From NCBI GenBank assembly GCA_016699265.1, contig CP064967.1:690001-722000 (forward strand): a DNA stretch of 32,000 nucleotides, in the 5' to 3' direction. Source of the DNA: Candidatus Saccharimonadota bacterium. GTDB lineage: Bacteria > Patescibacteriota > Microgenomatia > UBA1406 > GWC2-37-13. Positions 7,066-32,000 of this stretch are shown here, one piece after another; the stretch's first letter is position 1, and each line of letters begins with the position of its first letter. The notes below the pieces were generated by a model. The model had not been told where the DNA came from. It saw nothing but the letters and a program-made list of their open reading frames with translations, and did not search any database. The position numbers were made by a program, and so were the translations under genes.

Positions 7066-7069
7066 CATT

Positions 7070-9639: not shown

Positions 9640-9711
9640 AAGTCAAACTTGGCTTTGCCGAGTTTTATTCGGCTTCGCCGCCAAACTATATTTTACCTTA
9701 CGAGGCTCGTA

Positions 9712-15977: not shown

Positions 15978-16646
15978 CTAAACGATCTTTCCATCAACTA
16001 TTCTTATCTGTCGTTTCGTTTTTGCTGCAATGTCCGGTTCGTGAGTGACTATCACAATCGTTATCTTGTCTTCCTTATTTAATTCTTTTAGGAGTTTCAT
16101 AATTTCGTCACCTGTCTTAGTATCGAGATTGCCGGTTGGCTCATCTGCCAAAATAAGACTTGGTTGCATAATGAGCGCTCGAGCAATAGCTACGCGTTGC
16201 TGCTGTCCTCCAGATATTTTATTAGGATACGACTTTGCTTTTTCCTTAATTCCAAATCTCTCGAGTAAATACATAGCCTTCTCCTCGGCTTTATATGTCA
16301 ATTTCTTTCTTGCATAGATTGATGGAAGCATTACGTTTTCAAGAACGGTAAGTTTATTGATGAGATTAAACTGTTGAAATACGAATCCTACATACTCATT
16401 ACGAAGGGTTGAGATCTCATCATCATCGAGCTTAGAAATATCTTGTCCATTTATTGAAACTTTTCCTGTCGATGGTTTGTCTAAAAGCCCGATAATGTGC
16501 ATGAGCGTTGACTTTCCACTACCGGAGGGGCCGATTATTGAGCAAAACTCGCCATCTTTTATCTGGACAGAAATATTACTTAGTGCGGTGAAGACAACCT
16601 CCTCATCGAGCTTATACTCTTTTGTAACATTCTCTATTTTAATCAT
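15978..16646 (-). CDS. ABC transporter ATP-binding protein (MacB/LolD-type)
   Basis: Walker [11 protein letters not shown]-loop, signature [15 protein letters not shown], Walker [14 protein letters not shown]-loop VTHE. The likely start is MIKIENV at 16646. The ORF is open to 16673. Confidence 0.95.
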
Positions 16647-17680
16647 AGACAACATCACCTTCTTGTAATCCATTTAGTATCACCGTTGCCGTGTCTATTT
16701 CTTCACCGACCTCCACCGTTGTTTTTACTTTCTTTTCTCCAACTTTTTTCATTACATATTTCTTGCCACTTTCTGATTTAATAAAGGTTGTTGGTACGCC
16801 AATAACACCAACCATCTTCTTAGTGATGAACTCAACGTCTCCCGTCATCCCTAAACGATATTTCAGTTGAGCGCTATCAGAACTATCGGGAGAGGTGCTA
16901 ATCTTAACTTCATATACCGTTCCTGTTTCATCTGATTTAGGAGTAAACGCAATGGACTGTATGGTAGCTGATGTGGTCTCGTCTGGAAAAGAATCGTAAC
17001 TAATTTGACCCTTCATTCCTTCGTACATTTTCACAACATCAGTTTGATCCACAGCTCCTGAGAAATAAAGAGTTTCTGGGTTTACAATTACGAACTCGGC
17101 TTGCGTAGGGGTTATATTAACACCAGCCTGCTTGGTGCCAACCGAAGTAACAACACCAGCGATAGGCGAAACCAGAGTTGAATAACGAAGGGAGATGTCC
17201 GACAGTTCAACATCTAGAACTGAGCTATTAAGATCGAACTGCACTTTTTATATGCATCGATCGTGTCCTGTCTCAGATATTTATCTGGAGATAGTGCATG
17301 CTCATCGGTATCCATTGCCGTGTTGTCAAATGTAAGCCTTTGTTTATCATAGGTAATAAGTTCTTTCTCTAGTTGTTTCTTTAACTGTCTCTGATCCAGC
17401 GATGCTATTGATTGATACTTTTTTACCACATCACCTTCTGTTACCCCTACCCATGCGAGACGACCAGATGTCTGGAAGCGAAGAGTTGCCTTCTCCTGAG
17501 CATCTACTGATCCCGAAAATGTCAATGACTCGCTTAGTGTCTGTCGTTTTACTTTATAGGTCAACTCCACAACGGTACTTTTTTTACCCACAGTCTGACC
17601 ATAAACAATCCAACCAACAACGAAAATAATTATGAGTATGATCCACCAGCGTTTTTAATAATATTAAGCAGTTTCTTCAT
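16639..17680 (-). pseudogene. MacA/HlyD-family periplasmic adaptor broken by two frameshifts at homopolymers
   Basis: The ATG at 17680 gives MKKLLNIIK and then terminates. Adding one base to the T5 run at 17652-17656 gives MKKLLNIIKKRWWIILIIIIFVVGWIVYGQTVGKKST..., which continues into ORF 17214..17591. Adding one base to the T5 run at 17245-17249 gives ...DAYKKVQFDLNSSV..., which joins ORF 16639..17244. Confidence 0.8.
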
Positions 17681-17738: not shown

Positions 17739-18869
17739 TCATAGGAACGGTGCCCAGTTACCCACCGGCATAGCATTTCCTTGCAGAAAGGTCCATGCGT
17801 AGAGATATACAGCGGGCACAATCAGTATAAACGAAATGACTGTCCTTTTTGAGGTTAAATATTTTTCGAACACGATGCATGTGATTGGCAACATTGGCAA
17901 AGCGTAACGCGATATGTCTCGATGTTGTACGAAAATTAAACTAAAGAAAAAGGTAAGCGAAAAGTAAAATAAAATCTGCATCTTATGTTTATATGTATAA
18001 ACCACAGTTAAAGCATAGATTGCAAAGGTGAGTAGAACATCTTCAAGCCAGTGAGTACCTACCCATTTTGCGCTAGCATTGAATGCTGCGTATGGATAAG
18101 GCATCGGTACAACGTAACCCGTGTGCCAATATGCAAAGAGGTCACCCATCTGCTGCTGATAGATAAGACAGACCGCAGCAAGCCCTGCAGGAATAAGGAA
18201 AAGCCATAACCATCCAGACTCAAATCGCTTCTCCTCCCTCATCCTTTGTACCGCTGAAAATCCATAAGCTGCAAGTAAAAGAATTCCTGGTAGCTTTGTC
18301 ATCGTCGCGAGTCCACCTACTAAACCAGCAAATACGTACTTTTTCTTTTCGAAGAAAAAAAGTGAGAGCAAAATGAGCAACATAAATAAACTCTCTGGAG
18401 AACCGATCGACCGCACAACTAAAAATCGGGGGAACATTAAAAATACGAATGTGAGGAGTAGGGGTTTAGTACTGAGTTTTTGAGATTGTACGAAGTAATA
18501 AAAAAACCAACCGAGCAGTACTGTAGAGAGAAGCGTTACAAACATCATCGATTTTACATAACCCAAACCATATGCAAATCCACGAATGAGCCCTGGAAAG
18601 AGAGGAAGATGTGCAGCAAAGTACTCGGGAGTAAGTCCCCCTTCAAGCCGTAGCGAGTTAATTGCTGATGGTAGATACCATGATTTAGCTGCTATCACAT
18701 ATAGGAGTCCATCAAAGTTACGATATATGAGCGAGGTATCGGTATTTGGAATATGCATACCGAGAAAGCCTAATTGTTGAACAAACGGCAACCATACTAC
18801 CATGCTCGAGATAAGGGTGAAAAGAAGAATATAGAGGTAGTTTTTATACGTCCTGAAAAACCACTGCAT
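17739..18869 (-). CDS. GT-C-fold membrane glycosyltransferase, PIG-V/DUF2029-like (putative mannosyltransferase)
   Basis: 376 aa with about 10 TM helices. NFDGLLYVIAAKSWY resembles the PIG-V-type WDxxxYxxIAxxGY loop. The family call is from memory. Confidence 0.75.
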   Translation of the reverse strand: MQWFFRTYKNYLYILLFTLISSMVVWLPFVQQLGFLGMHIPNTDTSLIYRNFDGLLYVIAAKSWYLPSAINSLRLEGGLTPEYFAAHLPLFPGLIRGFAYGLGYVKSMMFVTLLSTVLLGWFFYYFVQSQKLSTKPLLLTFVFLMFPRFLVVRSIGSPESLFMLLILLSLFFFEKKKYVFAGLVGGLATMTKLPGILLLAAYGFSAVQRMREEKRFESGWLWLFLIPAGLAAVCLIYQQQMGDLFAYWHTGYVVPMPYPYAAFNASAKWVGTHWLEDVLLTFAIYALTVVYTYKHKMQILFYFSLTFFFSLIFVQHRDISRYALPMLPITCIVFEKYLTSKRTVISFILIVPAVYLYAWTFLQGNAMPVGNWAPFL

Positions 18870-20397
18870 GATTTATTATACTATGGTAATGATGAAGAGG
18901 TTGTCAGCTCTATTTGGTGGAAAACTATGGATGATTGCGGTACTTATTTTAGTAGCTATCGGGGCCTTCTTGAGATTACACCTCATCTATGAAACAGCGA
19001 CCTTTTTGGGAGATCAGGGAAGAGATGCAATTGTTATGCGCAACATCGCAACCTTGAGAGATCTTCCTGCTCTTGGACCCATCACCTCAGTCGGAAGTAT
19101 CTATCTTGGTCCTCTTTACTACTACATGATGGCTCCTTGGCTCTGGCTCTCCATCTTTAATCCGATCGGCCCCGCGGTTGGTATTGCGCTCATTACATCA
19201 GCTGCACTTTTCCTCCAATACATAGCAGTCAAAGAAATGGTGAATAAACAAACCGCCTTACTCTCAGTCGCATTTGCAACTTTTTCATGGGTTTTGGTCG
19301 AGTATTCACGTTTCTCATGGAATCCGAATCTACTACCTCAAACAACTCTTTTTGTAGCATACACCCTCTATAAGATTGTGAAGACTAAAAAACTTAGATA
19401 CTTTATTCTTCATGGAATTTTACTATCTCTCGCTATTCAACTTCACTATTTGGCAGTCTTCTTACTTCCGGTCACTATAGTGGTCCTATTGTTTAATGAC
19501 ATCAATGACCTGCCTGCCGGCAAGCAGGAAAGAAAAGATCCTCTCCTCCTTCATATCGGTAATTCACTCACCCTTGGTGCGTCGTTCGTTCTCCCCCTTG
19601 CTCCATTCCTTCTCTTTGAGGTGATACATTCATTTCCCAATTTCAGAAGCATTCTTCATTTCTCATCCACCAACTCTGGATCAAGCAACACCCCATTTAA
19701 TAACGAACTCTTTACGTCCCTTCAGAACACAGTTCAGTTTGCGACACAGTATAACTTCACGGGTTGGTGGGTAATATTCATAGGATTATTACTATTCGTC
19801 GTATTTATATATACATTGAAAAAAGGAGAAAAAATTTCGTATCTGGTTGGATCACTCCTCGTAATGATTATTGGAGTATCCTTTTACCGAGGGCCAAAAT
19901 ATGCTCACTACGTCGGAGGAACATATCTTTTGCTATATGTCACCGCGAGCTATCTCCTTGTTAAACTCGGTAGATTCAATGCTTATCTTGGCGGACTGTT
20001 GATTGCCCTTACCTTAGGAGTCTTTCTCAATCTCAACGTTCAGAAGTACTACTTCCTACGCGAGAAGGACCACCAAAATCAGATCGATAAAGCTTACCAA
20101 ATCGCACTCACAATCATCTCGATGAAACCCACCGAGACCTTCACACTCACCTCGTCCCCAGACGCTTATGCCGACTATCCGTATCGTTACTTTCTTGATG
20201 TCCTAAACAAAAAACCTATCTCAAAAGAAGCGGACTCGTACTCACCTTCAAATAGTTTATTTGTTGTATGCGAGGCTCAGTGCAACCCAATGAGTGATCC
20301 TCAGTGGGCAATTGCACATTTCAATCCTAAAAAAATTGAGGCAACAAAGACTATTTCCGCCTACCCTTGGCTCAAGGTTTATAAACTGACCCGTTAG
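18868..20397 (+). CDS. GT-C-fold glycosyltransferase, ArnT/PMT_2 (GT39/GT83)-like
   Basis: 509 aa: a multi-pass N-terminal region with an early acidic loop (FLGDQGRDAIVM) and a soluble C-terminal domain. The probable true start is an ATG at 18883-18892 (MKRLSALF). Confidence 0.8.
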   Translation: MIYYTMVMMKRLSALFGGKLWMIAVLILVAIGAFLRLHLIYETATFLGDQGRDAIVMRNIATLRDLPALGPITSVGSIYLGPLYYYMMAPWLWLSIFNPIGPAVGIALITSAALFLQYIAVKEMVNKQTALLSVAFATFSWVLVEYSRFSWNPNLLPQTTLFVAYTLYKIVKTKKLRYFILHGILLSLAIQLHYLAVFLLPVTIVVLLFNDINDLPAGKQERKDPLLLHIGNSLTLGASFVLPLAPFLLFEVIHSFPNFRSILHFSSTNSGSSNTPFNNELFTSLQNTVQFATQYNFTGWWVIFIGLLLFVVFIYTLKKGEKISYLVGSLLVMIIGVSFYRGPKYAHYVGGTYLLLYVTASYLLVKLGRFNAYLGGLLIALTLGVFLNLNVQKYYFLREKDHQNQIDKAYQIALTIISMKPTETFTLTSSPDAYADYPYRYFLDVLNKKPISKEADSYSPSNSLFVVCEAQCNPMSDPQWAIAHFNPKKIEATKTISAYPWLKVYKLTR

Positions 20398-20489
20398 AAA
20401 TTTGAATTTTGTAATTTGAAATTTGAATTCAATTATAAATATTTAAAATTGTAAATTGACTAAAAATTAAAAACTTTGAACTAAAAATT

Positions 20490-21239
20490 ATGCACGTAAC
20501 CCTTATTATTCCTTGCTATAACGAGGAGAAAAATATTCAAAAAGGAGTGTTAGATAGAATAGCAAACTATGTTCAAGATCATAAGCACTTCACGGAGGTT
20601 GTTATAGTTGATGACGGATCAACGGACTCAACCAAGGAAATTATCAAAAAAGAATATCTCCCCAAATTTAAGTTCTTCAGGTTGGTTGAAAATAATCATG
20701 AGGGAAAAGCGCGCGCTGTGATAGAAGGAATTAGACAATCTAAGGAACCGTTTGTAATGTTCACTGATATTGACCTCGCAACTCCGCTTGAAGAGTCTGA
20801 AAAACTCATAGCGCAGGCGGAAAAAGGATTCGATATTGTGATAGGATCACGTAACTCAACTCGCGAAGGTGCTCCGATTCTTCGCAAGGTAATGGCGGTA
20901 GGATTTATCGTAATTCGCAACCTCGCCCTCGGTCTTCACAAAATCCGAGACACCCAGTGTGGCTTTAAGCTCTTCAACCGGGATGTGGCACTAGCAATTA
21001 TTGATTGCATTAGACTATTCGACAGACAGAAAACGGTTACGGGCTCCTCGGTATCAGCAGCATTCGATCTCGAGTTTCTCTTTCTAGCGTCTAAAATGAA
21101 AAAAAGAATTATGGAGGTCCCGGTGATATGGCGTCATGTTGAGACAAAAAATGTTACCTTCTTCCACGACGTTTTAGAAACGCTTCGAGGAATTGCAGTC
21201 ATTATGTACCATAACGTAAGAGGAGACTATAACAATTAG
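20490..21239 (+). CDS. GT2 polyprenyl-phosphate hexose synthase (Alg5/Dpm1/GtrB-like)
   Basis: LIIPCYNEEKNI ... VVIVDDGSTDST ... GKARAV ... FTDIDLATP ... DTQCGFKLF are the signature blocks of Alg5/GtrB-type polyprenol-phosphate glycosyltransferases. Confidence 0.9.
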   Translation: MHVTLIIPCYNEEKNIQKGVLDRIANYVQDHKHFTEVVIVDDGSTDSTKEIIKKEYLPKFKFFRLVENNHEGKARAVIEGIRQSKEPFVMFTDIDLATPLEESEKLIAQAEKGFDIVIGSRNSTREGAPILRKVMAVGFIVIRNLALGLHKIRDTQCGFKLFNRDVALAIIDCIRLFDRQKTVTGSSVSAAFDLEFLFLASKMKKRIMEVPVIWRHVETKNVTFFHDVLETLRGIAVIMYHNVRGDYNN

Positions 21240-21244
21240 TTCTT

Positions 21245-21288
21245 AGTTTCCCGATTTCGATCGGGATCCTCGATTCTGAGGAATAGGG
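21245..21288 (+). repeat. Double-hairpin intergenic repeat, copy C
   Basis: The sequence is agtttCCCGATttcgATCGGGatCCTCGATtctgaggAATAGGG. It starts 6 nt after the stop of the GT2 gene and aligns end to end with copy B. Confidence 0.85.
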
Positions 21289-21290
21289 AC

Positions 21291-21318
21291 TTATTTCTTA
21301 TTTCTTATTTCTTATTTA
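21291..21318 (+). repeat. Heptamer tandem repeat (ttatttc x3 plus ttattta)
   Basis: Read directly from the sequence: ttatttc at 21291, 21298 and 21305, then ttattta at 21312. Confidence 0.9.
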
Positions 21319-21333
21319 AAAATTAATAACTGA

Positions 21334-22905
21334 ATAAAAATTAAAAACTTCAAATTAAAAATTCAATCTTATTGGCCATTAATACTCATACTTTCGGTAG
21401 TCGGTTTTCTTTTGACCTTTAGGCTTGGTCGTGATTTGTTACTGGACTGGGACGAATGTATTTATGCAGGCTATGCAATCAGCATGAAGATGGGTAGTTC
21501 GGCGCTTCATAATACGTGGAATACATTAGGTCTGTTTGAAAAATCTCCGTTTTATTCATGGATCTTGCAGCTGCCACTACTTTTTCAGAAAACTGAATTT
21601 AATCTTCGACTTCCAACAGTTCTCGCAAGTTTAACGCTTCTTGGATCGATCTACGTTTTTTGTCAGACCTATTTCTCAAAGAGAATAGCGGTAATCTCGA
21701 CGCTTCTCATGCTCACATTCGAATCGTATGTCATTTATTCTACAAAGGTCTCAACCGACGTCCTCTTTTCACTGTTTATATTTTCTGGTTTTTGGACCTG
21801 GGTATCGTCTGCAAATGGTAAAGGAAAAAGGTCGAAATTACTCGTATGGATGAGCGGAGTTTTTTTTGCGTTTGCGCTGATGGTCAAGGGATTAGGTGTT
21901 GCTCCTTATATGGGAACACTGTTCCTTTCAATTTTACTCCAACCAAAGAAAAATCGATTCTTCGATTTTTTCAAAATGCTCACCTCATTTATTGTGATTG
22001 GACTCCCATGGCATCTTCTGATGTACCTCACGCATCAAAAGGAATTTATACAGATGTATTTAGTCGATAATTTTTATAAACGTTCAACCTTTCCTGTAGA
22101 GTTTCACCGAGAGCGAATTTGGTTTTATCTTGACCTTCTTTACAAGGAATCATTTCCGTGGATCTTTGCACTATTCATAGCGCCTTTATCGGTCATCCTG
22201 AATGCAGTGAAGGATCTAGCAAAGCGAACCAAGAAAGGATCTGGATTTCTTGCATTCACCCTGCCTACCGGCAGATAGTTCGGAATGACAGTTCGGGGAC
22301 AAATTGAGAAAAATAGTCTCACTTATACAGTTTTCTTATTCGTGCTCCTACCTCTCATATCTATTTCACGAGTCCAAACTCGAATTGCATGGTATGTGAT
22401 TCCACTACTCCCGTACCTTTCCATTTTTCTCGCGATTTGCCTGAATCTGGTCTTTGATTTTATGAAGAAAAAAAATAAAGTACTAAGTAATGTACTTTTT
22501 GTTCTCTTATTAATTTTAATCATCTTGGATGTAGGAAAATTAATCCTGAACGAAACACGATTTACGCAAAGTAAACCAACAATTGATTCAAGATATGAGG
22601 TAATTTTGCAGTCCTCAAAACTACAAGGCAGTGTTCTCAACTACCTCGTTCCGTTTGGCGAACGACAGGCCAAGGTTATACTCCCTCTAGATGAGACGCT
22701 TACGAACACTTGGTACTACGGGGGCAATGCCTGCGCCGTCTACTACAGTAATAAAAAAGTAAATTACTTCTATGAGATAGAGGCATTTGAGAAAGCTTTT
22801 ACCCAAAATGATGGCCTCTTCCTCATCTCAAACCAAGACGCAAAATACGCAGAAGATAAGGTGATTTTATTTAAAAATGCCGACTATACCTTGTTTACTT
22901 TCTAG
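21334..22905 (+). pseudogene. GT-C (ArnT/PMT_2-like) paralogue with an in-frame TAG and no canonical start for its first TM helix
   Basis: ORFs 21412..22278 and 22285..22905 are in the same frame, separated only by TAG at 22276-22278 (...LPTGR*FGMTVRGQ...). Together they are about 495 aa, like the paralogues. The frame is open from 21334 and encodes the expected TM1 (YWPLILILSVVGFLLTFRLG...DWDECIYAGYA), but there is no ATG, GTG or TTG before 21412. Confidence 0.7.
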
Positions 22906-23494
22906 CCAATCTTCCTCGAAGACTAAGTGTGGCGATCAAAATATTTATCAGAAATAAATATACGGGGAATAGTAGATTTGCTACATCGAACTTCGTCGTA
23001 GACAAAACTCCAACAAATGCGGCCGTAGCAAAGATAAAAAATGCAGAAGGCGTCTCTGACATTGGATCGCTGAAAGACTTTTTAATAGTTGGCATAGAAA
23101 CAATTAGATCTGCAATTACAGATAGGACCAGAGCCGTTAGTGGATTTTTAGTTATCATCCATAACGCGATAGCCAAAAAACCGAAGATCAGACTTAATCT
23201 ATCAAACAATGTGTACTTTGTTACTCCGTACTTTAATGACAACAAAAAAGTAATTCCAGTTCCAAGTAAGTCTCCTATTAACAACAAAACGGAAAAACTG
23301 GCCCCTTCTTTTATCTGTGCAGCGGCTCCAATGCTCAATAATATTGTCCAACCAAGCCAAGAAACTGAGTTTGGCCTGGTTTTACCGTTCAAAATATCTC
23401 GAATATATGGGACGATCGCGAAGAATATGAGAAGTCCGGACAGAAGTCCGAGCACTGCATGCCAGTCGTACATTCCTAATACTACCAAATTCAA
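22895..23494 (-). CDS. 7-TM membrane protein with two PQ-loop-like motifs (paralogue 1)
   Basis: 199 aa with 3+1+3 TM helices. The motifs VPYIRDILNGKTRPNSVSW (after TM1) and MPTIKKSFSDPMSETPSAF (after TM5) are shared with the neighbouring paralogue. Confidence 0.8.
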   Translation of the reverse strand: MNLVVLGMYDWHAVLGLLSGLLIFFAIVPYIRDILNGKTRPNSVSWLGWTILLSIGAAAQIKEGASFSVLLLIGDLLGTGITFLLSLKYGVTKYTLFDRLSLIFGFLAIALWMITKNPLTALVLSVIADLIVSMPTIKKSFSDPMSETPSAFFIFATAAFVGVLSTTKFDVANLLFPVYLFLINILIATLSLRGRLARK

Positions 23495-23526
23495 CCAGAC
23501 AAGGGCCTTACAGCACTTTAATTATT

Positions 23527-23572
23527 TTTCCGAGTTCTCAGAATCGCGATTCCCGATTTTATGTTGGGAAAA
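23527..23572 (-). repeat. Double-hairpin intergenic repeat, copy D (inverted orientation, diverged)
   Basis: The reverse complement reads ttttcccaacataaaatcgggaatcgcgattctgagaactcggaaa. This aligns with copy B (tttcccgatttacgatcgggatcccgattctgaggcaatcgggg). It lies between the two PQ-loop-like genes. Confidence 0.65.
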
Positions 23573-23586
23573 TAATAGAAACAAAC

Positions 23587-24159
23587 TTATTTCTTTCTTC
23601 CCTTTATCAAAACCCCTACAAGTATAAGGTTGGCTAAAAATACAGCTGACGGGTAGAGCGCAGTGATTAGGGAAATCTTTTCTAGAGCAAATATGGATAT
23701 AAAATGTTTGATTGCCGCAAAATTATGAGTCGAAAGGGTTTCCTCGTAAGGCTTCTTTAAGCTTTTTCTAATCGTGGGATAAAACGCAGCAACATCAATA
23801 AATGTTACGAGAATGATCGAAAGTAAAGCGTTCCTCACAATTATGAACAGGAATGTGGCGCCAACAACTCCGGCCAACATGACTTTATCACTCCTCGTGA
23901 TATCTTTCGTGCCAAACTTAAAAGACAAGGCGAGTATTAACAAGCAGAGTATGGCGGTAACACCGGTGGTCCAGGCACCTGCACCAGCTCCGTCGCTCAT
24001 CTGAGAGAAGAAGGCCATAAATGTGAGAGGTGTCCAGATCACCCATGTGTAAAGATGCGGCTTAGTTTTCTTTTTTACGATATCGGATATATACGGAAAT
24101 AAACTAAAAATACTTATTACGACAGCGGTGATTCCGAGTATTTCCTTGATATTAGGCAT
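23587..24159 (-). CDS. 7-TM membrane protein with two PQ-loop-like motifs (paralogue 2)
   Basis: 190 aa. FPYISDIVKKKTKPHLYTW and YPTIRKSLKKPYEETLSTH occupy positions equivalent to the motifs in 22895..23494. Confidence 0.8.
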   Translation of the reverse strand: MPNIKEILGITAVVISIFSLFPYISDIVKKKTKPHLYTWVIWTPLTFMAFFSQMSDGAGAGAWTTGVTAILCLLILALSFKFGTKDITRSDKVMLAGVVGATFLFIIVRNALLSIILVTFIDVAAFYPTIRKSLKKPYEETLSTHNFAAIKHFISIFALEKISLITALYPSAVFLANLILVGVLIKGRKK

Positions 24160-24234
24160 AGTTGTAGACCGAATGAAGAGTTAAAACCGATCCCTCTTGA
24201 GAGTTGGACATTGAAGTATTATATAATAATTGTG

Positions 24235-25755
24235 ATGTTTGACATATCTGGCTTTGTCAATTGGTTCCGAAAAAACTTTTCAAAGCGCGATCTTTTTTAT
24301 ACTGCCTTACTACTCGTCACTTATCTCGCAACTCGCCTCATAAATCTTGATAAGTTTCCGATTTTCACCGATGAGGGCATCTATATTCACTGGTCCAAGA
24401 TTGCTTGGAAGGATGCGGCGTGGCGCTTTATTTCTCTAACTGATGGGAAACAACCGCTACACACCTGGGGAATGATTCCATTTCTCAAGATATTTTCACC
24501 CAACCTTCTGTTAGGTGGCCGAATGTTTTCTATACTCTCAGGACTGATCGCGCTCAAAGGAGTTTTTTCTCTCTCCTACTATCTCTGGGGTAAAAAAACA
24601 GCTTTTATAGCCTCACTGTTCTACATCTTCACTCCGATGTTTCTATTTTATGACAGAATGGCGCTTGCCGATTCAGCTGTTAACGCAGGATTTATCTGGA
24701 TACTATTTGGGTCGATTCTTCTTATAAGAACGCTGAGAATGGATGTAGCTCTCGCGTTTGGCCTTGCTGCAGGTACAGCCATGCTTACTAAATCTTCCTC
24801 ACAGATGTTTGTGGCGCTCAGTGGACTCGCACCTGTACTCGCTTTCAAGAAAAAGTCCTTCATCAAAAATTCTTTCAGTTTCTATGTACTTTTCGTTTTT
24901 GCCTATGTCCTAGCGCTGGTCATTTACAACGTACAAAGACTCTCTCCTTATCTTCAGTATGTCGATCAAAAAAATGGCACTTTTGTTCTCACATTCAAAG
25001 AGTTCTTCGCAGCGCCATTCTCTCTGGTGATAAGCAATCTACCCCTAATTCCGTGGTATGTGTTTTCTGAAATGGGCTACGCATTAGGAGTTATCGGAGT
25101 GGTGGGATTATTTTTCTTGATCAAAAAAGATTGGAGATTGGGTCTCTATCTTGCAGCATGGCTTCTATTCCCCTATGTTGCTATTTCATTTTTTGCCAAG
25201 GTAATCTTTCCCCGATATCTTATATTTTTTGCTACGCTCCTAACTTTGACTGCAGCTTATTTAATCAGTAGTACAAAAAATAAGACAGTCAAAGTTCTCT
25301 GTTTCACGTTCTACGCTCTAAGTGTCGGTTACTTCAACTATGCAATATTATTCGATAATCAGAAAATTCCGTTCCCTCCTGTTGATCGCGGACAGTACAT
25401 CGAAAGTGTGAACGCAGGATATGGAATCAAAGATCTAATTCAGTATGCTCGTGAAAAATCTATGGATAAACCCGTTATTCTACTCGCCGAGGGAAACTTT
25501 GGCGTCGTAGGCGACATGTTAGAGTCATCGATCGGAATAGGTGAAAAAATTAGCATCAGAGGATTCTGGCCCCTAAATGCAAAGGACCTCTACGACAATC
25601 AGAAAGAACTTGCGAATAACCATGTGTATGTGGTTTATTCCCACAGAAAGCTTTCCGAGATCGATTCCTCATGGCCATTACGCCTCATTAAGGAATATAG
25701 GAGACCGTTTGGAGACTCAAGCTTTACCCTTCTTGAACTTACCAGCGCTAATTAG
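24235..25755 (+). CDS. GT-C-fold glycosyltransferase, ArnT/PMT_2 (GT39/GT83)-like
   Basis: TM1 followed by RLINLDKFPIFTDEGIYIHWSKIA, the DE-containing first periplasmic loop typical of ArnT/PMT. About 11 TM helices and a soluble C-terminal domain. The ATG at 24235 is preferred over the TTG at 24211. Confidence 0.85.
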   Translation: MFDISGFVNWFRKNFSKRDLFYTALLLVTYLATRLINLDKFPIFTDEGIYIHWSKIAWKDAAWRFISLTDGKQPLHTWGMIPFLKIFSPNLLLGGRMFSILSGLIALKGVFSLSYYLWGKKTAFIASLFYIFTPMFLFYDRMALADSAVNAGFIWILFGSILLIRTLRMDVALAFGLAAGTAMLTKSSSQMFVALSGLAPVLAFKKKSFIKNSFSFYVLFVFAYVLALVIYNVQRLSPYLQYVDQKNGTFVLTFKEFFAAPFSLVISNLPLIPWYVFSEMGYALGVIGVVGLFFLIKKDWRLGLYLAAWLLFPYVAISFFAKVIFPRYLIFFATLLTLTAAYLISSTKNKTVKVLCFTFYALSVGYFNYAILFDNQKIPFPPVDRGQYIESVNAGYGIKDLIQYAREKSMDKPVILLAEGNFGVVGDMLESSIGIGEKISIRGFWPLNAKDLYDNQKELANNHVYVVYSHRKLSEIDSSWPLRLIKEYRRPFGDSSFTLLELTSAN

Positions 25756-27486
25756 TACGACGACTCCAATCACCGATACGATCGATGTTGCATTTGCCCA
25801 GGTTCTGATCGGAGTATCCTCAAAACGAAACTCAAGACTATGCTCGCCCTTTGGCACCTGAACCGTGATAAGTTTAAATCTATTTCTATCGTTGATAGGA
25901 AGTACGCCACCATCAATCCTTCCAGTCCACCCGGGAAAGTGAAAGGTATTGAGTTGAAACGTGCTCAATCTTTTTGCATTTAATAAAAATACTTTTTTGT
26001 TAAAGCTATTCTCGACGATCTGAACAGACGCTCGCCCCTTGATCACTTTGTAAGGATTTTTTGGAACCTGATATTTTGATATATCAAAGATACTTGTATC
26101 ATACTGAGACTTTCTCAGGGGTACTCCTCTGGGACTAAACTCAAACGAACTTGAACTTACATTCCATGCGATCTCGTTAAATGATGTTAATTCACTATCT
26201 TTTTTATACACATAATTTTCTGGTTTAAAGTATTTTTGATACTGAAGAATTGTTCCGGTAATGACAATTAATGATAAAAACATTATTACTCTATCATTCC
26301 CGACCCGATCGGGAATCCAATTTATTGGGTTTCTGGATCCCCGCTTGCGCGAGGATGACAATACCTCATGTATATATTCGAAACTGTAGCCACCAAGCAA
26401 AGAAATAAATATTCCCGCAAAGGTTAAAAACCTCCATGGAAACTGCAGGTACTGAAGTGGTTGAATAGCGTCCCAAATGATTCGCGAATACTCGGTCGTC
26501 ATGAAAAGACTGAATAATAACATTGCAACGTAGACCGCATATCGTATAGCGTATTTCGTATCAATTTTTTTCTTCAATATTAAGAATAAGAACAAAATGA
26601 GTGATAGAACGGCCAGACCAATTTGTATTTTTCCAAGTTGAAAACTCATACCATCCGTGAGTCCAAGCCCAGAGCCACCATATCCCCACTGAGAAAACCA
26701 GAGTTGAGACGGCTGGATAAAGTGAATTGAGTATGAAGCAAGTTCCTTTGTGAGAATCGAGTCTACTAGCGTAAACTTTCTTTCAAGCATTGAAGGAAGC
26801 CAATAAAAAGCTGACAGCAGCGCTCCCAACAAACCTCCTAGAGCAACGTAAACTACATACTTAAACCTTTTTGAGACATAGAAAGAAGAGCCTAGAACAT
26901 AAATCGCGCAGAAAAAAATAAAAGGAAAAGCCACAAAGACATGACTCATAATGAGTAGGGCCACAATTACACCAAAGAACACAGCGCGTCTGACCGTTGC
27001 TTTTTCTCGTAAGAGTTCTAAACTCAAAAATGCAAAAGGCAGAAGGTTCATCCCATAAAATTCGGCAAATGCCCCTCGTACATAAACCAAAACAGCATGG
27101 TATGTAAAAAAAGTAAACAAAGTTGCGGTTACTAAACCTACAACCTTTGATCTTATAACCTTCAAACCTAATAGATACATTCCCACTGCCCCCAACAAAT
27201 ATCCAGAGATTATCATTGCCTTAACCGACCAAATATACGACGCGCCGATAAGCCTGTACATTTCCGAAATATAATAAATAAACGGAGGGTAAAAATTAAA
27301 GAGCGGGTACCCAAAGTTGAATCCAAGTACGTCGACCCATCGAGGAAACAAATATCCCTGATGGATCCCTTGATCTAGTAAAAATAGCCTTGCGATATGC
27401 TGAAAGTCGTGCACTGAAAAGTACCATGGATTTAACAAACTTACAAATGAGGGAATTGCTATAATCAGAAGTAGCAGGAAGTACAT
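25717..27486 (-). CDS. Large GT-C-like membrane protein (YfhO/ArnT-like architecture)
   Basis: 589 aa. HDFQHIARLFLLDQGIHQGYLFPRWVDVLGFNFGYPLFNFYPPFIYY is an N-terminal loop typical of YfhO-like GT-C proteins (from memory). It has many TM helices and a C-terminal beta-rich domain plus a TM anchor. Confidence 0.8.
   Translation of the reverse strand: MYFLLLLIIAIPSFVSLLNPWYFSVHDFQHIARLFLLDQGIHQGYLFPRWVDVLGFNFGYPLFNFYPPFIYYISEMYRLIGASYIWSVKAMIISGYLLGAVGMYLLGLKVIRSKVVGLVTATLFTFFTYHAVLVYVRGAFAEFYGMNLLPFAFLSLELLREKATVRRAVFFGVIVALLIMSHVFVAFPFIFFCAIYVLGSSFYVSKRFKYVVYVALGGLLGALLSAFYWLPSMLERKFTLVDSILTKELASYSIHFIQPSQLWFSQWGYGGSGLGLTDGMSFQLGKIQIGLAVLSLILFLFLILKKKIDTKYAIRYAVYVAMLLFSLFMTTEYSRIIWDAIQPLQYLQFPWRFLTFAGIFISLLGGYSFEYIHEVLSSSRKRGSRNPINWIPDRVGNDRVIMFLSLIVITGTILQYQKYFKPENYVYKKDSELTSFNEIAWNVSSSSFEFSPRGVPLRKSQYDTSIFDISKYQVPKNPYKVIKGRASVQIVENSFNKKVFLLNAKRLSTFQLNTFHFPGWTGRIDGGVLPINDRNRFKLITVQVPKGEHSLEFRFEDTPIRTWANATSIVSVIGVVVLISAGKFKKGKA
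26297..26318 (+). repeat. Copy E of the first hairpin of the repeat family, inside the CDS 25717..27486
   Basis: ttcccgacccgatcgggaatcc aligns with ttcccgatttacgatcgggatcc of copy B. It contains the perfect palindrome cccgatcggg. On the minus strand it is translated as ...NWIPDRVGNDR... in a hydrophilic loop. Confidence 0.6.
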
Positions 27487-27500
27487 TTCAGAACATTATA

Positions 27501-28952
27501 ATGGATACACTAAGTCAAGAGGAACTAAAGAGAAGAGGATTTATTAGCACCATAAGTCTATTTTTTCAGAGTGGTTATTCTGCGGTTCTTGGACTTATTG
27601 CCAATCTTATCGTTACGATTCTTCTCAGTCCACATGTCTTTGGGATCTATATAACAGTCCTGTCGATAATAGCCCTCTTCAACTACTTCTCAGACTTTGG
27701 ACTTGCCGCTTCACTCATACAGAAAAAGGAGATGACGGAAGAGGACATTAAAACCACCTTTACAATTCAACAGACTTTGATAGTTACCTTAATCACTATC
27801 GGTTTTTTTGCCACTACGTTCGTACGAAAGTTCTACAATCTTCCTCAGGAAGGCATGTATCTCTACTGGTCACTACTATTTGCTTTTTTCATCTCGTCTC
27901 TTAAAACTATCCCATCCGTTTTCCTTGAAAGACATATTAAATTTAACAAGGTCGTATATGTACAGGTAGTTGAGAATACCTTATTTTATGCAGCAGTTTC
28001 GATACTCGCAATAATGGGTTTCGGCTTGATGAGTTTCACTTACGCAGTGATGATCCGCGCCGTATCAGGACTAATCCTCATCTATAGAATATCACCGTGG
28101 ACCCCTCAGTTTGGATTCAACAAACAATCTTTAAAAATACTGCTCTCATTTGGTGTTCCATTTCAGGCTACCTCTTTTCTAGCCTTATTTAAGGATGATC
28201 TCATAGTGCTCTTCCTTGGAAAAATCCTCGGGTTTGAGCTATTAGGTTACGTCGGTTGGGCGAAGAAATGGGCAGATGCACCTCTCAGGGTATTTATGGA
28301 CAATGTAGGAAGAGTCTTGTTCCCCGTAATGTCTCGTGTTCAGGATAATAAAGAAAGACTTCGAAGCATCAGCCAAAAACTACTTTACTATCAGACTATG
28401 CTACTAGCGCCCGTTATGATCGGTATGATGTTTGCCTTACCATTACTCGTTACTTTGATACCTCAGTACACTAAATGGCAACCCGCCATACCTCTCTTTT
28501 ATATTTTTGCGCTATCATCACTCATTGTTTCTTTTTCTGCCCCATTCATGGCGCTGTTTAATGCTTTGGGAAAAGTGAAAATAACCTTCACATTTATGCT
28601 TCTTATAACCATAGTGACATGGATTCTCACTCCGATTCTTACTAAGAGGTATCAAGAATACGGATTCCCCATTACTCATTTAATTGTGTCATGTACCTTG
28701 GGACTTATTTTATTAAAGGTGCGCTCAACACTTGATATGAAAATTCTTCCATTCATCTTTAAACCACTACTATCAAGTGCAGGAATGGCAGTAATATTGT
28801 TCGGAGTTCAAAAACTATTTCCGGAAGCGAGTATTCCTCTTTTTATTATCATCTCCACTACGGGTGCTGTTTCGTACTTCGCGATTATGACCTATATATT
28901 CAATACAAATATTTATAGGGAACTCGTACAGTTTAAAAATAACAATGAATGA
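27501..28952 (+). CDS. Wzx-type oligosaccharide/polysaccharide flippase (MOP superfamily)
   Basis: 483 aa with about 12-14 TM helices. The N-terminal pattern GYSAVLGLIANLIVTILLSPHVFGIY...FSDFGLAASLIQ is typical of the polysaccharide biosynthesis protein family. Confidence 0.85.
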   Translation: MDTLSQEELKRRGFISTISLFFQSGYSAVLGLIANLIVTILLSPHVFGIYITVLSIIALFNYFSDFGLAASLIQKKEMTEEDIKTTFTIQQTLIVTLITIGFFATTFVRKFYNLPQEGMYLYWSLLFAFFISSLKTIPSVFLERHIKFNKVVYVQVVENTLFYAAVSILAIMGFGLMSFTYAVMIRAVSGLILIYRISPWTPQFGFNKQSLKILLSFGVPFQATSFLALFKDDLIVLFLGKILGFELLGYVGWAKKWADAPLRVFMDNVGRVLFPVMSRVQDNKERLRSISQKLLYYQTMLLAPVMIGMMFALPLLVTLIPQYTKWQPAIPLFYIFALSSLIVSFSAPFMALFNALGKVKITFTFMLLITIVTWILTPILTKRYQEYGFPITHLIVSCTLGLILLKVRSTLDMKILPFIFKPLLSSAGMAVILFGVQKLFPEASIPLFIIISTTGAVSYFAIMTYIFNTNIYRELVQFKNNNE

Positions 28953-29760
28953 TAAGCTTGCAATCATAACGGTCTCCTTCAATAAAAAAGCCGTCACTCA
29001 ACTTATTGAGTCCCTCGCTCATCAGAATCACAAAAACTTTACTCTTTATATCGTTGACACATCAGGCAACAACGACACCTTCCCTCCACTTAACCTTAAT
29101 GTGAAGGTTCTTAACCGGATAAATAAAGGATACGCTTACGGGATAAACGAAGGCATTAAAGAAGCTATGACAGATGGAGTTAACGCATTTTGCATAATCA
29201 ATGACGATACATATGTTGAAAAGGATTTTACTCAAAAAGCTAATGCCTCAATAAAATCCCATCCAAGTTCCTTGATTGGAGGTAAGATATATTATGCGCC
29301 AGAACACGAATACCATAAAGACAGATATGCAAAAAAAGATCAAGGGAATGTACTTTGGTATGCGGGTGGAACCGTTGACTGGTCACATAGTCAACCGGGT
29401 CATCGAGGAGTAGATGAGGTCGATCTAAAACAATTTGATAAAGTGGAAGAAACGGAGTTCATTACGGGCTGCCTCATGCTCTTAGACAAGTCAGTTATCA
29501 ACTCTCTTGGATTTCTCGATGAGTCGTACTTTCTCTACTATGAGGATGCCGATTACTGTGAGCGAGCAAAGAAACTAAATATTAAACTAATCTACGATCC
29601 ATCTGTAAAGATCTGGCATCTCGTTTCACAGTCAACCGATGGGTCCGGATCTAAACTTCATCAAAAATATCAAAAGAAAAACCTCGTTAAGTTTGCTTTA
29701 AAGTATGCGCCTCTACGTACAAAGCTCCACGTATTGAAAAACTATTTTTTTGCTGTGTAA
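28945..29760 (+). CDS. GT2 family glycosyltransferase (rhamnosyltransferase/WbbL-like)
   Basis: LAIITVSFN ... GYAYGINEGIK ... INDDTYV ... ITGCLMLL ... FLYYEDADYCERAKK are GT2 (GT-A) blocks. The start overlaps the wzx stop by 8 nt. Confidence 0.88.
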   Translation: MNDKLAIITVSFNKKAVTQLIESLAHQNHKNFTLYIVDTSGNNDTFPPLNLNVKVLNRINKGYAYGINEGIKEAMTDGVNAFCIINDDTYVEKDFTQKANASIKSHPSSLIGGKIYYAPEHEYHKDRYAKKDQGNVLWYAGGTVDWSHSQPGHRGVDEVDLKQFDKVEETEFITGCLMLLDKSVINSLGFLDESYFLYYEDADYCERAKKLNIKLIYDPSVKIWHLVSQSTDGSGSKLHQKYQKKNLVKFALKYAPLRTKLHVLKNYFFAV

Positions 29761-30080
29761 TCCCCACGATCTCGAGCTACTTGTTGCTCGTTCTCAAATA
29801 CTTCCAACACAACTGTACCGATTTTCGTTCCCGTACCTGGTTGGAATCCTCGTCTTTGAAATCCCTGTTCCCAGCTATTTAGAACCTCTTCTCGACGTTT
29901 GGGGTCTACCACACTCTCTCCTAGATGGGTCTTCGCCTTTCCAATAAAATGTGCTTCTTTTAACCTCTTACCAAAAAAGTCGAAGAGATGTTCATCTAAT
30001 TTTACGATTTCCTTTCGCGCAACATCTTTAACCGCTGCCCACATCGCTCTTGTTCGCTCTATTCCTCTACGACGCTCCAT
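29742..30080 (-). CDS. Hypothetical 112-aa soluble, highly charged protein
   Basis: ORF only. I recognise no family. Its 3' end overlaps the convergent GT2 gene by 19 nt. Confidence 0.5.
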   Translation of the reverse strand: MERRRGIERTRAMWAAVKDVARKEIVKLDEHLFDFFGKRLKEAHFIGKAKTHLGESVVDPKRREEVLNSWEQGFQRRGFQPGTGTKIGTVVLEVFENEQQVARDRGDYTAKK

Positions 30081-30119
30081 AACTGCAAACTATACCACAA
30101 GTAGCCTCAAAGACAAGGA

Positions 30120-30694
30120 TTAAAAAGAGATATAGCCGAGATCTTGGAGCTTGAGTAGAATGGATTTTAGATCGGTATTCTTAATGTAGAGATCTCCTTT
30201 TAGGTCGACTCCTGTTGGATTTCTCAATACCTCGACACCTTTGACCTTCTCGAGTCTAGTGTATTTATCTCCTGCCCAGTCAAGAAAAAACTTTCCAAAC
30301 TCAAGAGCTGGAGTCTGAAAAATAGACGCACTTTGCTTAAATATAAATATTCTAGGCGGATGTTCACTAAACTGCTTCAAGTATGAGTCTCGTAACTCGT
30401 CCCCTTCTCTAAACTGAGGCAGTAGTGATGGATGTTTTCCAACCCATACACCCTTTTTACATAGAAAGATTCATTAGGTTCATACGGCCCAATGAAGTAA
30501 TAATCTCCTTGATCGAGAACCTCATCAATAAAAGTTGCAGCGGGCCCCGCATTATGAATGGTCGGAAGTTTTTGAGTGTAGATCTTATATGCGGTGTTGA
30601 AGGAATTAACCAGGAGAAATATTCCCGTGAAAATAAAGAAAATTAATGTGATTAAGCGCACAACTCTACGCAAATCACTCAACCAGTCGTCCAT
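30120..30694 (-). pseudogene. Membrane-anchored extracytoplasmic protein split by a frameshift at a homopolymer
   Basis: ATG at 30694 preceded by AGAGG. MDDWLSDLRRVVRLITLIFFIFTGIFLLV is an N-terminal anchor. The downstream ORF 30120..30380 starts only at a TTG, and its frame is open about 30 codons further upstream. Adding one base to the T5 run at 30454-30458 joins them: ...NESFYVKKGVWVGKHPSLLPQFREGDELRDSYLKQFSEHPP.... Confidence 0.6.
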
Positions 30695-31808
30695 TGCCTC
30701 TACGGAGCCTTTTGCGGGGTGGGTTTGATTTTGCTTTGGAAAATAACCAAAGAACAAAGACAGAGGATATTAGGCCAAGCACCAAAAACATCGAGGATTG
30801 GTAGTCTGTCTCCTTAAAATCCTGAAGTCCACTTCGTGGAGCTGAAAAAGACAACACCAGAAAGTACATAAGTCCCAAAACCAATTTTTGCAAACAGAAA
30901 AAGAACAGAGTTAGTGTGGAAATACCTGCTAAGGTACCTATCGGAAGATACAGATCGAGATACTTAATCTTGGTTAGAAGTGGTAGATAACCTGCGGAAA
31001 AGTTTGAGATTATTGTCCATGAAAACTTAAATGGATTAAAGTGAGGACCTCTTACATAGTTTGGAATACTGATGTAGTACTTAGTGTTGTAAACAAAGTT
31101 CGCAAAATAAAAATCGTTCCAAGTTTTTGTAAGAAAAAGGTTGAGAACAAAAATACCGTAAGGCAGTATCGACCACGCAATGAGACTCAGCAATTTTTTA
31201 TCAACTTTAAACTTATAGAGATATGCATGCCAAAGATACAATACGGCTCCCATATATAGGAATGTAGCCGAGGACATAATCATGCAAAAAACAAAAAACG
31301 AGGAAACAAATAGACTTCTACCCAGCGACTTATTATCGAATGTCTCTGCTAAAAGAATCCAGAATGCGATGCTGAAAAAGAATACTGCAAGACTATCGGC
31401 CAAAAATAAATGGAACCAAAAATATAAAGAGGCAGCGGGATACAAAACAAAAAAAGCAAGAAATGGCTTTACCAAAGAAGGATGCTTTTTATAGATCCAT
31501 CGTCCGAGTAACGCAAACCCACCGAATTGGGCAACCGCCCATAAAACTCTCGTAAGAACAAAGGACTTACCAGAAAGAAATAAAAAAATAGAAGAGATAT
31601 ACCATGCTAGAGGAAGATGATGATCCCAAAAATCTCTATACGGTAACCCACCATTGAGAATGACCTTTCCTCCGAGGAGATTTATATATTCGTCTGGGTA
31701 GTCTACGTATCTACTATTTAGCAGGAATAGACCAAAGATAATGCCCAGAAGCAAAATCGAGGTGTAATTTTTCCGTATTAGTGAACTTAGTTTCTCTAGT
31801 AAGACCAT
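30675..31808 (-). CDS. GT-C-like multi-pass membrane glycosyltransferase (DUF2029/PMT_2-like)
   Basis: 377 aa with about 10 TM helices. The early loop DEYINLLGGKVILNGGLPYRDFWDHHLPLAWY resembles the catalytic first loop of GT-C enzymes. Confidence 0.75.
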   Translation of the reverse strand: MVLLEKLSSLIRKNYTSILLLGIIFGLFLLNSRYVDYPDEYINLLGGKVILNGGLPYRDFWDHHLPLAWYISSIFLFLSGKSFVLTRVLWAVAQFGGFALLGRWIYKKHPSLVKPFLAFFVLYPAASLYFWFHLFLADSLAVFFFSIAFWILLAETFDNKSLGRSLFVSSFFVFCMIMSSATFLYMGAVLYLWHAYLYKFKVDKKLLSLIAWSILPYGIFVLNLFLTKTWNDFYFANFVYNTKYYISIPNYVRGPHFNPFKFSWTIISNFSAGYLPLLTKIKYLDLYLPIGTLAGISTLTLFFFCLQKLVLGLMYFLVLSFSAPRSGLQDFKETDYQSSMFLVLGLISSVFVLWLFSKAKSNPPRKRLRRGNGRLVE

Positions 31809-32000
31809 AACGATCTAAGTTTTTTTCTTTCAATTATCAACGTTAACAGATTAATCATAGCAAATATAATTATTACAGCATGTTTTAAACCCAGGTTATG
31901 CAGATCTCCCCATGTCCCATACAACACAAATGGATAGTAAGAAAACAATATTCCGATTAGAAATATCTGCATTCTTTTGATGAGTTCGAAGAAATACGGT
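31796..32000 (-). CDS. 3' end of a further membrane-protein gene (partial, runs off the window)
   Basis: The minus-strand frame is open from the window edge: ...PYFFELIKRMQIFLIGILFSYYPFVLYGTWGDLHNLGLKHAVIIIFAMINLLTLIIERKKLRSLWSY*. The stop at 31796-31798 overlaps the start of the next gene by 13 nt. Confidence 0.5.
   Translation of the reverse strand, partial: PYFFELIKRMQIFLIGILFSYYPFVLYGTWGDLHNLGLKHAVIIIFAMINLLTLIIERKKLRSLWSY

Follow-up and report, generated by a model that had tools for sequence, protein, structure and literature searches.

In actinobacteria the synthase Ppm1 feeds PimE of glycosyltransferase (GT) family GT87, MptA, MptB, MptC and the GT39 enzyme Pmt, serving the formation of lipomannan and lipoarabinomannan as well as protein O-mannosylation. 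In the multi-component systems of Gram-positive bacteria (CsbB/GtcA/YfhO, GtlA/GtlB and GacI/GacJ/GacK/GacL) a GT-A enzyme makes a C55-phosphate-linked sugar, a flippase moves it, and a GT-C enzyme of the PMT_2 or YfhO type transfers the sugar to a wall polymer on the outside (PMC8035078). For the group A carbohydrate of Streptococcus pyogenes the cytoplasmic GT-A enzyme GacI, which has no transmembrane helices, works together with the Wzx-type flippase GacK and the PMT_2 GT-C enzyme GacL, and the cluster also encodes rhamnosyltransferases (PMC8035078). In the N-glycosylation pathway of Haloferax volcanii the Wzx homologue AglR has been implicated in the delivery of dolichol-phosphate (Dol-P) mannose to the GT-C enzyme AglS (PMC3871713). 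Here we analyze a stretch of 32,000 nucleotides (the window; positions 690,001 to 722,000 of the forward strand of contig CP064967.1, assembly GCA_016699265.1) from a Candidatus Saccharimonadota bacterium, in which genes for six GT-C-type proteins lie together with a polyprenyl-phosphate sugar synthase and a Wzx-type flippase. The reading that we favour, with some reserve, is that most of a conserved cluster lies in this region, one which assembles or decorates a cell-envelope glycoconjugate outside the membrane, in a patescibacterium of the Microgenomates type. It builds on the family or fold of each component, on conserved catalytic-type motifs and on conserved synteny, and from these we infer the activities and the acceptors. 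In the following, A to F denote the six GT-C genes, S1 and S2 two small genes for proteins with seven transmembrane helices, and L-numbers the contigs and loci used for comparison.

The GT-C proteins A to E were assigned by sequence, while a fold test on a predicted structure was applied to F. Against the PMT_2 cut-off of Pfam (26.1 bits) B scores 35.2, C 53.3 and D 29.7 bits, C additionally matches PMT (PF02366, 30.8 bits), and E matches PTPS_related (PF10131) with 45.5 bits at a cut-off of 26.4; PMT_2 and PTPS_related are both members of the Pfam GT-C clan CL0111 (PMC7801869). C is interrupted in the window by a TAG codon, and its two halves are collinear with ArnT on both sides of it (residues 27-278 and 289-376). 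For B, C and D no MIR or PMT_4TMC match was found at E≤0.1 and the PMT match is seen in C only, and C reaches 52.8 bits in the window and 50.9 bits as the intact gene of L001 against the ArnT equivalog model PRK13279, which has a cut-off of 567. As judged from their sequences, B, C and D are PMT_2/ArnT-like and not GT39 proper. Protein A gives sub-threshold matches to GT87 of Pfam (E 5.7e-4, 20.2 bits vs a cut-off of 25) and to the AZOBR_p60025 glycopolymer family of NCBIfam (E 3e-8), and a profile of 41 A homologues collected by a full HMMER scan matches glycosylphosphatidylinositol (GPI) mannosyltransferase 1 (PIG-M) in the PDB with an E-value of 1.6e-6.

Protein F has no sequence match in Pfam, NCBIfam or the PDB, even as a 30-sequence profile, and its homologues (535-594 amino acids (aa), mostly about 550-565 aa) have no Pfam match either. 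Its AlphaFold model is of high confidence (predicted local distance difference test (pLDDT) 92.2, predicted template-modelling score (pTM) 0.91), and when the model was compared with the PDB by Foldseek the best match was ArnT (5f15) with an E-value of 5.6e-5 and a template-modelling (TM) score of 0.46. The nine best matches are all GT-C-fold proteins (ArnT twice, AglB, STT3, DPY19, AftA, ALG3, Pmt1 and PIG-U) and eight of them are enzymes, the GT-C enzyme matches having a probability of at least 0.99 and TM-scores of 0.39-0.46; the first transporter follows with a probability of 0.25. On the strength of this model, F defines an unannotated GT-C-fold family of about 555 aa.

In every family an acidic motif follows the first transmembrane helix. 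It reads YRNxDG in A (D53 invariant in 41 sequences), FLGDQGRDA in B, DWDEC in C, FTDEGIYI in D, HD in E and YPDE in F (Y37-P38-D39-E40, all of them invariant or almost so among 30 sequences, D39 and E40 without exception), and the motifs of B to E are kept in the orthologues from L003-L005, L088 and L089. Since profile or fold matches are thus joined in every family by an acidic motif at this position, the GT-C assignment stands for all six proteins, which are supported as membrane glycosyltransferases of the GT-C superfamily, with lower confidence for A and F as active enzymes.

The putative donor synthase between B and C gives 91 bits with Glycos_transf_2 and carries the motif DTQCGFK. Its best PDB matches are the Pyrococcus DPMS (3.5e-16), ArnC (5e-13) and GtrB (1.5e-9), and the top seven distinct PDB sequences are DPMS, three of ArnC and three of GtrB. 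The NCBIfam matches (PgfS, ArnC, the haloarchaeal Dol-P-hexose transferase, AglJ and PpgS) all stay far below their equivalog cut-offs, for example 68 vs 500 for PgfS, so a specificity for glucose, as implied by the name “Alg5-like”, is not established. The class of a polyprenyl-phosphate glycosyltransferase (the DPM1/ALG5/GtrB/ArnC group of GT2) is supported by these similarities, and the protein lacks the two C-terminal transmembrane helices typical of GtrB and ArnC. The Wzx-type protein matches Polysacc_synt_3 with 165.6 bits, has a second Polysacc_synt/Polysacc_synt_3 score of 86.6 bits, above threshold, and in NCBIfam gives sub-threshold matches to a MOP flippase (1e-41) and then to an O-glycosylation flippase (2.5e-32). 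The GT2 whose gene overlaps that of the flippase gives 45 bits with Glycos_transf_2 and a sub-threshold match to the rhamnosyltransferase model TIGR01556 (8e-13).

An earlier note on this DNA, made without database searches, had proposed six multi-pass GT-C-like proteins, a polyprenyl-phosphate-hexose synthase with the DTQCGFK motif, a MOP-family flippase, a second GT2, and uppP and a GT4 gene 12 kb away. All six reading frames were found at or close to the positions it gave, and the class of each component is borne out: B, C, D and E pass Pfam cut-offs, A is linked to the superfamily through the PIG-M profile match and F through its fold, the synthase has DPMS, ArnC and GtrB as its relatives, the flippase is a clear Polysacc_synt_3 protein, the second GT2 is present with its weak rhamnosyltransferase match, and both upstream genes are there (Table 1). 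The counter-case named in the note itself, that most of the six might be generic membrane proteins without profile matches and a conserved acidic first loop, finds no support, the acidic motif being conserved in every family.

Table 1 Genes of the glycosylation region and related upstream genes, in window coordinates.
Feature	Position	Strand	Remarks
GT4	4810-5919		
UppP	5998-6780		
A, PIG-M/GT87-like GT-C	17739-18869	-	376 aa
B, PMT_2-type GT-C	18868-20397	+	509 aa
Polyprenyl-phosphate sugar synthase, GT2	20490-21239	+	249 aa, DTQCGFK motif
C, ArnT/PMT_2-type GT-C	21334-22905	+	In-frame TAG at 22276-22278
S1, membrane protein with seven transmembrane helices	22895-23494	-	199 aa, paralogue of S2
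S2, SWEET/PQ-loop-fold membrane protein with seven transmembrane helices	23587-24159	-	190 aa
D, PMT_2-type GT-C	24211-25755	+	514 aa; alternative ATG start 24235
E, PTPS_related GT-C-clan membrane protein	25717-27486	-	589 aa, C-terminal extracytoplasmic domain
Wzx/MOP-family flippase	27501-28952	+	
GT2, cytoplasmic, rhamnosyltransferase-like	28945-29760	+	8-nt overlap with wzx
Chorismate mutase, CM_2	29742-30080	-	40.6 bits
F, member of the ~555-aa GT-C-fold family	30120-31808	-	Frameshifted in the window into three open reading frames
Further GT-C, MptA_B family, 360 aa	31796-32000	-	3' end only (205 nt), continues past the window

Each of the six GT-C genes has a strong 1:1 orthologue in the same order in L003-L005, with E-values of 1e-60 to 1e-250 per gene and S2 57-65% identical. 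Syntenic 1:1 orthologues are also present in L088 and L089, whose F proteins share 63% and 58% identity with that of the window. In the latter two loci at least 12 glycosylation genes keep their order while the flanking housekeeping context differs. Such a conserved gene order with 1:1 orthologues argues for one functional unit held together by selection.

Judged from L001, L088 and L089, the cluster runs about 6 kb beyond the end of the window, and this part adds two or more GT-C genes. Beyond position 32000 one finds, in this order, an MptA_B GT-C, a GT2, a GT4, another GT2, a PMT_2-like protein of 542 aa and an Rce1-like protease, followed by sigma-70 and DnaG. The MptA_B gene corresponds to L001 8931-10013, which aligns from window position 31796 on, and its product carries PF26314 (precomputed annotation) together with a sub-threshold match to MptA TIGR03459 (E 1.7e-7); the 542-aa protein is a sub-threshold PMT_2 match in L001 and lies above the threshold in L088 and L089. 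The whole cluster measures about 20-22 kb and holds eight GT-C genes in the lineage of the window and ten or eleven in L089. At its far end, past the DnaG and sigma-70 genes, a LytR_C domain is found in a protein about 490 aa long (L001 1-313, L088 1-542), and if this protein is a ligase of the LCP type it could attach the polymer to peptidoglycan.

We propose the following scheme for the cluster. The GT2 synthase without transmembrane helices would charge polyprenyl phosphate with a monosaccharide at the cytoplasmic face, as expected from its family. The lipid-linked sugar would then be moved across the membrane, by the Wzx-type protein or by another one; the precedents proposed for GacK and AglR make Wzx the most economical candidate by analogy. 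On the outside, the GT-C enzymes (three ArnT/PMT_2-like, one PIG-M/GT87-like, one PTPS/YfhO-like and one of the new family, joined beyond the window by an MptA-like and another PMT_2-like enzyme) would each transfer the sugar to an acceptor or linkage of their own; their adjacency to the synthase speaks for lipid-phosphate-linked sugars as donors, and a wall polymer, a lipoglycan similar to lipomannan, or an S-layer or pilin protein may be the acceptor. It is also probable that Wzx and the cytoplasmic GT2 and GT4 enzymes jointly make an oligosaccharide or polymer on undecaprenyl diphosphate, to be used as substrate or scaffold, and Wzx may also, or instead, flip the oligosaccharide made by its neighbours.

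Several observations weigh against this scheme. The genes lie on both strands and form at least six transcription units, so that they may not be co-regulated, and A and F remain below every curated family threshold of Pfam and NCBIfam. No GtrA (PF04138) match was found in Pfam searches of the island's open reading frames of 100 aa or more, where a Wzx-type protein is present instead, and the window lacks a priming phosphoglycosyltransferase, genes of nucleotide-sugar pathways and an acceptor protein. A second synthase, of the GtrB type with two C-terminal transmembrane helices (308-317 aa), is found in L005 (9051-10004) and L088 (17510-18436), occupying the slot where the window has S2, which means that one donor for all GT-C enzymes may not hold generally.

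The alternative that survives best is a Wzx-dependent route through an undecaprenyl-diphosphate oligosaccharide, in which cytoplasmic GT2/GT4 enzymes make a repeat unit that Wzx flips, one or more of the large proteins with an outer domain at the C terminus (E, F) act as oligosaccharyltransferase, ligase or polymerase instead of using polyprenyl-monophosphate sugars, and the synthase serves side-chain decoration only. We consider it unlikely, while granting it a real chance. It draws on the Wzx gene with its overlapping rhamnosyltransferase-like GT2, the GT2-GT4-GT2 run just past the window, UppP and GT4 upstream, the oligosaccharyltransferases AglB and STT3 among the fold matches of F, and the O-glycosylation flippase as second-best NCBIfam match of Wzx. 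Set against these are the lack of a detectable priming phosphoglycosyltransferase, Wzy or WaaL-type protein in the window, the lack of a WWDxG-like motif in the consensus and invariant positions of the F family (by inspection only), and the best fold match of F, since ArnT uses a monophosphate donor. This route is compatible with the proposed scheme and does not exclude it.

The genes could also encode functionally independent envelope-modifying enzymes that act on lipid, peptidoglycan or protein with different donors and are adjacent merely because a compact genome rearranges slowly. The arrangement on both strands in many small units would fit, as would the variable slot between D and C and the presence inside the cluster of unrelated genes (the chorismate mutase and the S1/S2 transporters). 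Mere adjacency is difficult to reconcile with the order of at least 12 genes kept at F identities of 58-63% in a differing flanking context, and GT-C genes are enriched far above background: in the part of the cluster inside the window 6 of about 15 genes are GT-C genes, compared with at most 2 of 140 random genes with a PMT_2 match in related genomes (Fisher p ~2e-6 for a background of 1/140). It is clear from these numbers that the clustering of GT-C genes is not due to chance, and we regard the independence of the enzymes as improbable.

A third possibility, put forward in the earlier note, is a lineage-specific expansion of GT-C paralogues which, served by one Alg5-like synthase, glycosylate surface proteins in a combinatorial manner, with one copy decaying. 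Six GT-C genes and one synthase within 14 kb, two of the six being interrupted in the window, might indeed suggest as much. When A to F were compared all against all by blastp and phmmer, E 0.02 was not surpassed by any pair, and the family profiles of A and F aligned in hhalign with a probability of only 0.7%. The sole true paralogue pair of the region is S1/S2 (28% identity, E 1e-22). With blastp, phmmer and hhalign all empty, recent paralogy of the six GT-C genes was rejected, and the 1:1 orthologues in syntenic clusters of distant relatives likewise speak against a recent expansion. The “six paralogues” are, as far as sequence comparison reaches, ancient, distinct and mutually unrecognisable families that have been kept together, that are non-interchangeable, and that are not recent duplicates. 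Dating the duplications is not meaningful, because no pair is detectably similar and the orthologues are syntenic and 1:1.

The interruptions, of which the earlier note had taken that in the third gene as decay, do not support this model either. Seven contigs from independent aquatic metagenomes (L001 and L082-L087) are 99.6-99.8% identical to the window (L001 99.58% over 10.7 kb), and in all seven C is uninterrupted (471-523 aa called) and F has 564 aa. The reading frame of C is continuous except for one in-frame TAG, created by a C>T change at 22276 that is private to the window; the codon is CAG in L001 and the six other near-identical contigs. The sixth gene had been mis-delimited as 30675-31808, which is only the N-terminal two thirds of it: the real gene is cut by frameshifts into three pieces (30675-31808, 30377-30757 and 30120-30380), and a homologue of 564 aa (P0001) aligns across all three frames. 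Five or six single-base homopolymer deletions in F are private to the window, with length changes of 1 nt at 30453, 30715, 30728, ~30880 and 30897.

Further homopolymer (A/T/G) length changes of 1 nt that are private to the window were found at 12321, 17244, 17651 and 17692. Among them the T6 to T5 changes at 17244, 17651 and 17692 split the gene of an HlyD-like adaptor (16639-17591, - strand) into two open reading frames, while it is a single 347-aa gene in the six sister contigs that cover it (L082-L087). Also private is a 15-bp tandem duplication (14654-14668, - strand; VIQHL-VIQHL in the protein) in the HD-domain gene at 12996-14735. The N-terminal stretch of this HD-domain protein varies in length among the sister strains (566-574 aa called).

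In total about nine homopolymer indels compare with exactly one clear private substitution, the C>T at 22276. Such a spectrum is produced by error-prone reads or low coverage and is unlike natural divergence; the remaining 122 columns that vary between the strains are mostly substitutions. As they are private to the window and of this composition, the breaks in C and F are most likely errors of assembly or sequencing, and in the population from which the sequence derives C and F are intact. That C, F and the HlyD-like gene are pseudogenes is not favoured for the same reason, indel-dominated private changes being typical of sequencing error. The private indels cluster in F and in the HlyD-like gene, which could equally reflect locally poor coverage or a real relaxation of selection. 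Read-through or recoding of the TAG in C was rejected as well, since TAG terminates 6 of 29 genes and is an ordinary stop here. With no similar pair among the six, with orthologues in distant relatives, and with interruptions that resemble homopolymer errors and are absent from seven contigs, the paralogy part of the expansion model is largely refuted, and we regard the model as a whole as highly improbable.

The weakest of the alternatives, that some of the GT-C proteins, F and A especially, are non-catalytic scaffolds or transporters sharing the fold only, as PIG-U does in the GPI transamidase, can appeal to the failure of both to reach a curated family threshold, to PIG-U (7w72_U) among the matches of F and to its modest TM-scores, and is barely credible given the invariant acidic residues (D39 and E40 in F, D53 in A) and a list of best fold matches consisting of GT-C-fold proteins and, with one exception, of enzymes.

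The nature of S1 and S2 deserves separate consideration. The AlphaFold2 model of S2 (pLDDT 94.3) has seven helices, and its 12 best Foldseek matches in the PDB are all SWEET proteins, KDEL receptors or cystinosin, with TM-scores of 0.50-0.63 and probabilities of 0.95-1.0 at E-values of only 0.02-0.3. S2 thus shares the predicted 3+1+3 seven-helix fold of the PQ-loop/SWEET/KDEL-receptor superfamily and differs from it in sequence: searches of Pfam, NCBIfam and PDB sequences gave no match for the S family, and none of 38 members matches the PQ-loop or MtN3_slv profile at E≤1. The alignment of the family shows two internal repeats, PYIxDIxKGKTKPH and PTIRKSxxKPYEET, each with a conserved proline followed by a basic loop, where P-Y and P-T stand in place of the P-Q of the superfamily and no P-Q dipeptide occurs.

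S1 is 100% conserved in the seven sister contigs, and neither S1 nor S2 is present in the clusters of L088 and L089. The slot between D and C holds S2 and S1 in the window, a GtrB-type GT2 and S1 in L005 and the GtrB-type GT2 only in L088, and it is empty in L089. A pattern scan of the GTDB representative genomes confirmed at least 555 loci of the S family, mainly in Patescibacteria, DPANN archaea, predatory bacteria similar to Micavibrio and Bdellovibrio, and Chloroflexota. Among the best 80 of the 555 loci, blast clustering of the four neighbours on either side gave no family in more than six loci; among 132 immediate neighbours Pfam found four PMT_2 and two GT2 proteins, compared with at most two PMT_2 among 140 distant genes. 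Most simply, S1 and S2 are solute transporters in a variable slot and not conserved parts of the cluster.

The superfamily also contains MPDU1 (PMC3281891), which is required for the use of Dol-P-mannose and Dol-P-glucose by a mechanism that is unknown (PMC9169118). S1 and S2 might be the bacterial counterparts of MPDU1, translocating polyprenyl-phosphate sugars or presenting them to the GT-C enzymes in a lineage without GtrA, in which case the S family would be a new class of proteins that handle lipid-linked sugars. A role as the flippase of the pathway was nevertheless rejected as the working explanation, because the neighbourhood of S genes is not conserved and the clusters of L088 and L089 lack them, and we retain the MPDU1-like function as a long shot only.

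Coding is dense on both strands throughout the window and the base composition is uniform (GC content 0.36-0.45); the GC content of the cluster (0.38-0.42) equals that of its flanks, which gives no evidence for a horizontally acquired compositional island. The gene content switches to glycosylation from 17739 onward. The preceding 17.7 kb contain housekeeping genes and seven tRNAs, among them genes for GroES/EL, a Lon-like AAA protein, NUDIX, MazG, PurA, and GNAT and HD-domain proteins, together with a MacB-type ABC exporter to which the HlyD-like adaptor belongs. At 6787-7788 tRNAs for Ala, Ile, Phe and Gly follow one another, and among them is a tRNA-Ile with anticodon UAU (6993-7066, + strand), which reads AUA directly. 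In bacteria AUA is usually read by a lysidine-modified tRNA with a CAU anticodon, and a tRNA-Ile with UAU is uncommon. The 5' end of the NUDIX reading frame (9565-10146, TTG start) overlaps a tRNA-Cys on the opposite strand (9567-9639), and its real start is probably downstream of 9565.

Some gene starts within the cluster call for comment. The divergent genes A and B share 2 nt at their annotated starts (18868-18869), leaving no intergenic promoter region; in the gene calls of the sister contigs B starts 15-63 nt further downstream (488-509 aa called), and its true start may lie a few codons downstream of the annotated one. In C the first transmembrane helix is preceded by none of the codons ATG, GTG and TTG, the first canonical start being a TTG at 21412, after this helix. 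Upstream of it only ATA (21334) and ATT (21340) are available, in the window and its sisters alike, and the L003 orthologue has ATG there. Translation may begin at a rare start codon, or else the entire lineage has lost an N-terminal part of the gene. The lone chorismate mutase keeps its position inside the cluster in L001 and L088, and no other gene for aromatic amino-acid synthesis is nearby.

The genomes of Patescibacteria measure about 1 Mb, a life attached to host cells is assumed for these bacteria, and their surface display is almost unstudied. With small genomes and a host-attached life, surface display must be central to their biology, and the cluster takes about 2% of such a genome for extracytoplasmic glycosylation. 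At least eight different GT-C enzymes kept together across a family-level clade are likely to form a cell-surface determinant, and with one synthase, one Wzx and several GT-C proteins in which putative catalytic motifs have been identified the cluster offers targets for biochemistry. In the literature we found nothing specific on GT-C expansion in bacteria of the candidate phyla radiation.

How does the cluster compare with the systems described at the outset? It shares with GacI, GacK and GacL a synthase without transmembrane helices, a Wzx-type flippase and PMT_2-type GT-C proteins, and there is a rhamnosyltransferase-like GT2 here too. The Gram-positive systems differ in that they pair synthase and GT-C enzyme one to one, whereas here one synthase stands beside six to eight GT-C proteins of different families in a patescibacterial host; neither a protein of the GtrA/GtcA type nor a partner resembling GacJ was detected here, and the NCBIfam matches of the cluster lie far below the equivalog cut-offs. 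With the Dol-P-mannose synthase AglD and with AglR and AglS the likeness is the combination of a lipid-phosphate-sugar synthase, a Wzx-like protein and an extracytoplasmic GT-C; that pathway is archaeal, uses dolichol and has a single GT-C in addition to AglB, and no AglB or PglB orthologue was identified in our cluster. ArnC/ArnT and the Gtr systems (GtrA/GtrB/GtrX), which glucosylate O-antigen, have a synthase of the same family, and C is collinear with ArnT, which is also the best fold match of F. In contrast to those systems there are no GtrA, ArnE/F or 4-amino-4-deoxy-L-arabinose biosynthesis genes here, C stays at 53 bits vs 567, and the organism is presumably monoderm and without lipid A, which is what ArnC/ArnT modify with aminoarabinose.

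The Ppm1 network of actinobacteria comes close in another respect, namely that one GT2 synthase serves many different extracytoplasmic GT-C enzymes, as proposed here. A is GT87/PIG-M-like, the gene across the window end belongs to the MptA_B family, and the synthase without transmembrane helices resembles the catalytic domain of Ppm1. The similarities are weak and stay below the thresholds (E 1e-4 to 1e-7), there is no PimA or PimB in the window, mannose is not established for the cluster, and the actinobacterial genes are dispersed whereas those described here are clustered. As every equivalog test fails, the cluster is not an orthologue of any characterised system. Its architecture resembles the known multi-component transmembrane glycosylation systems and involves no new principle; it stands out for the dense packing and the diversity of the GT-C genes kept in one block of a ~1-Mb genome, and for the unannotated family of F.

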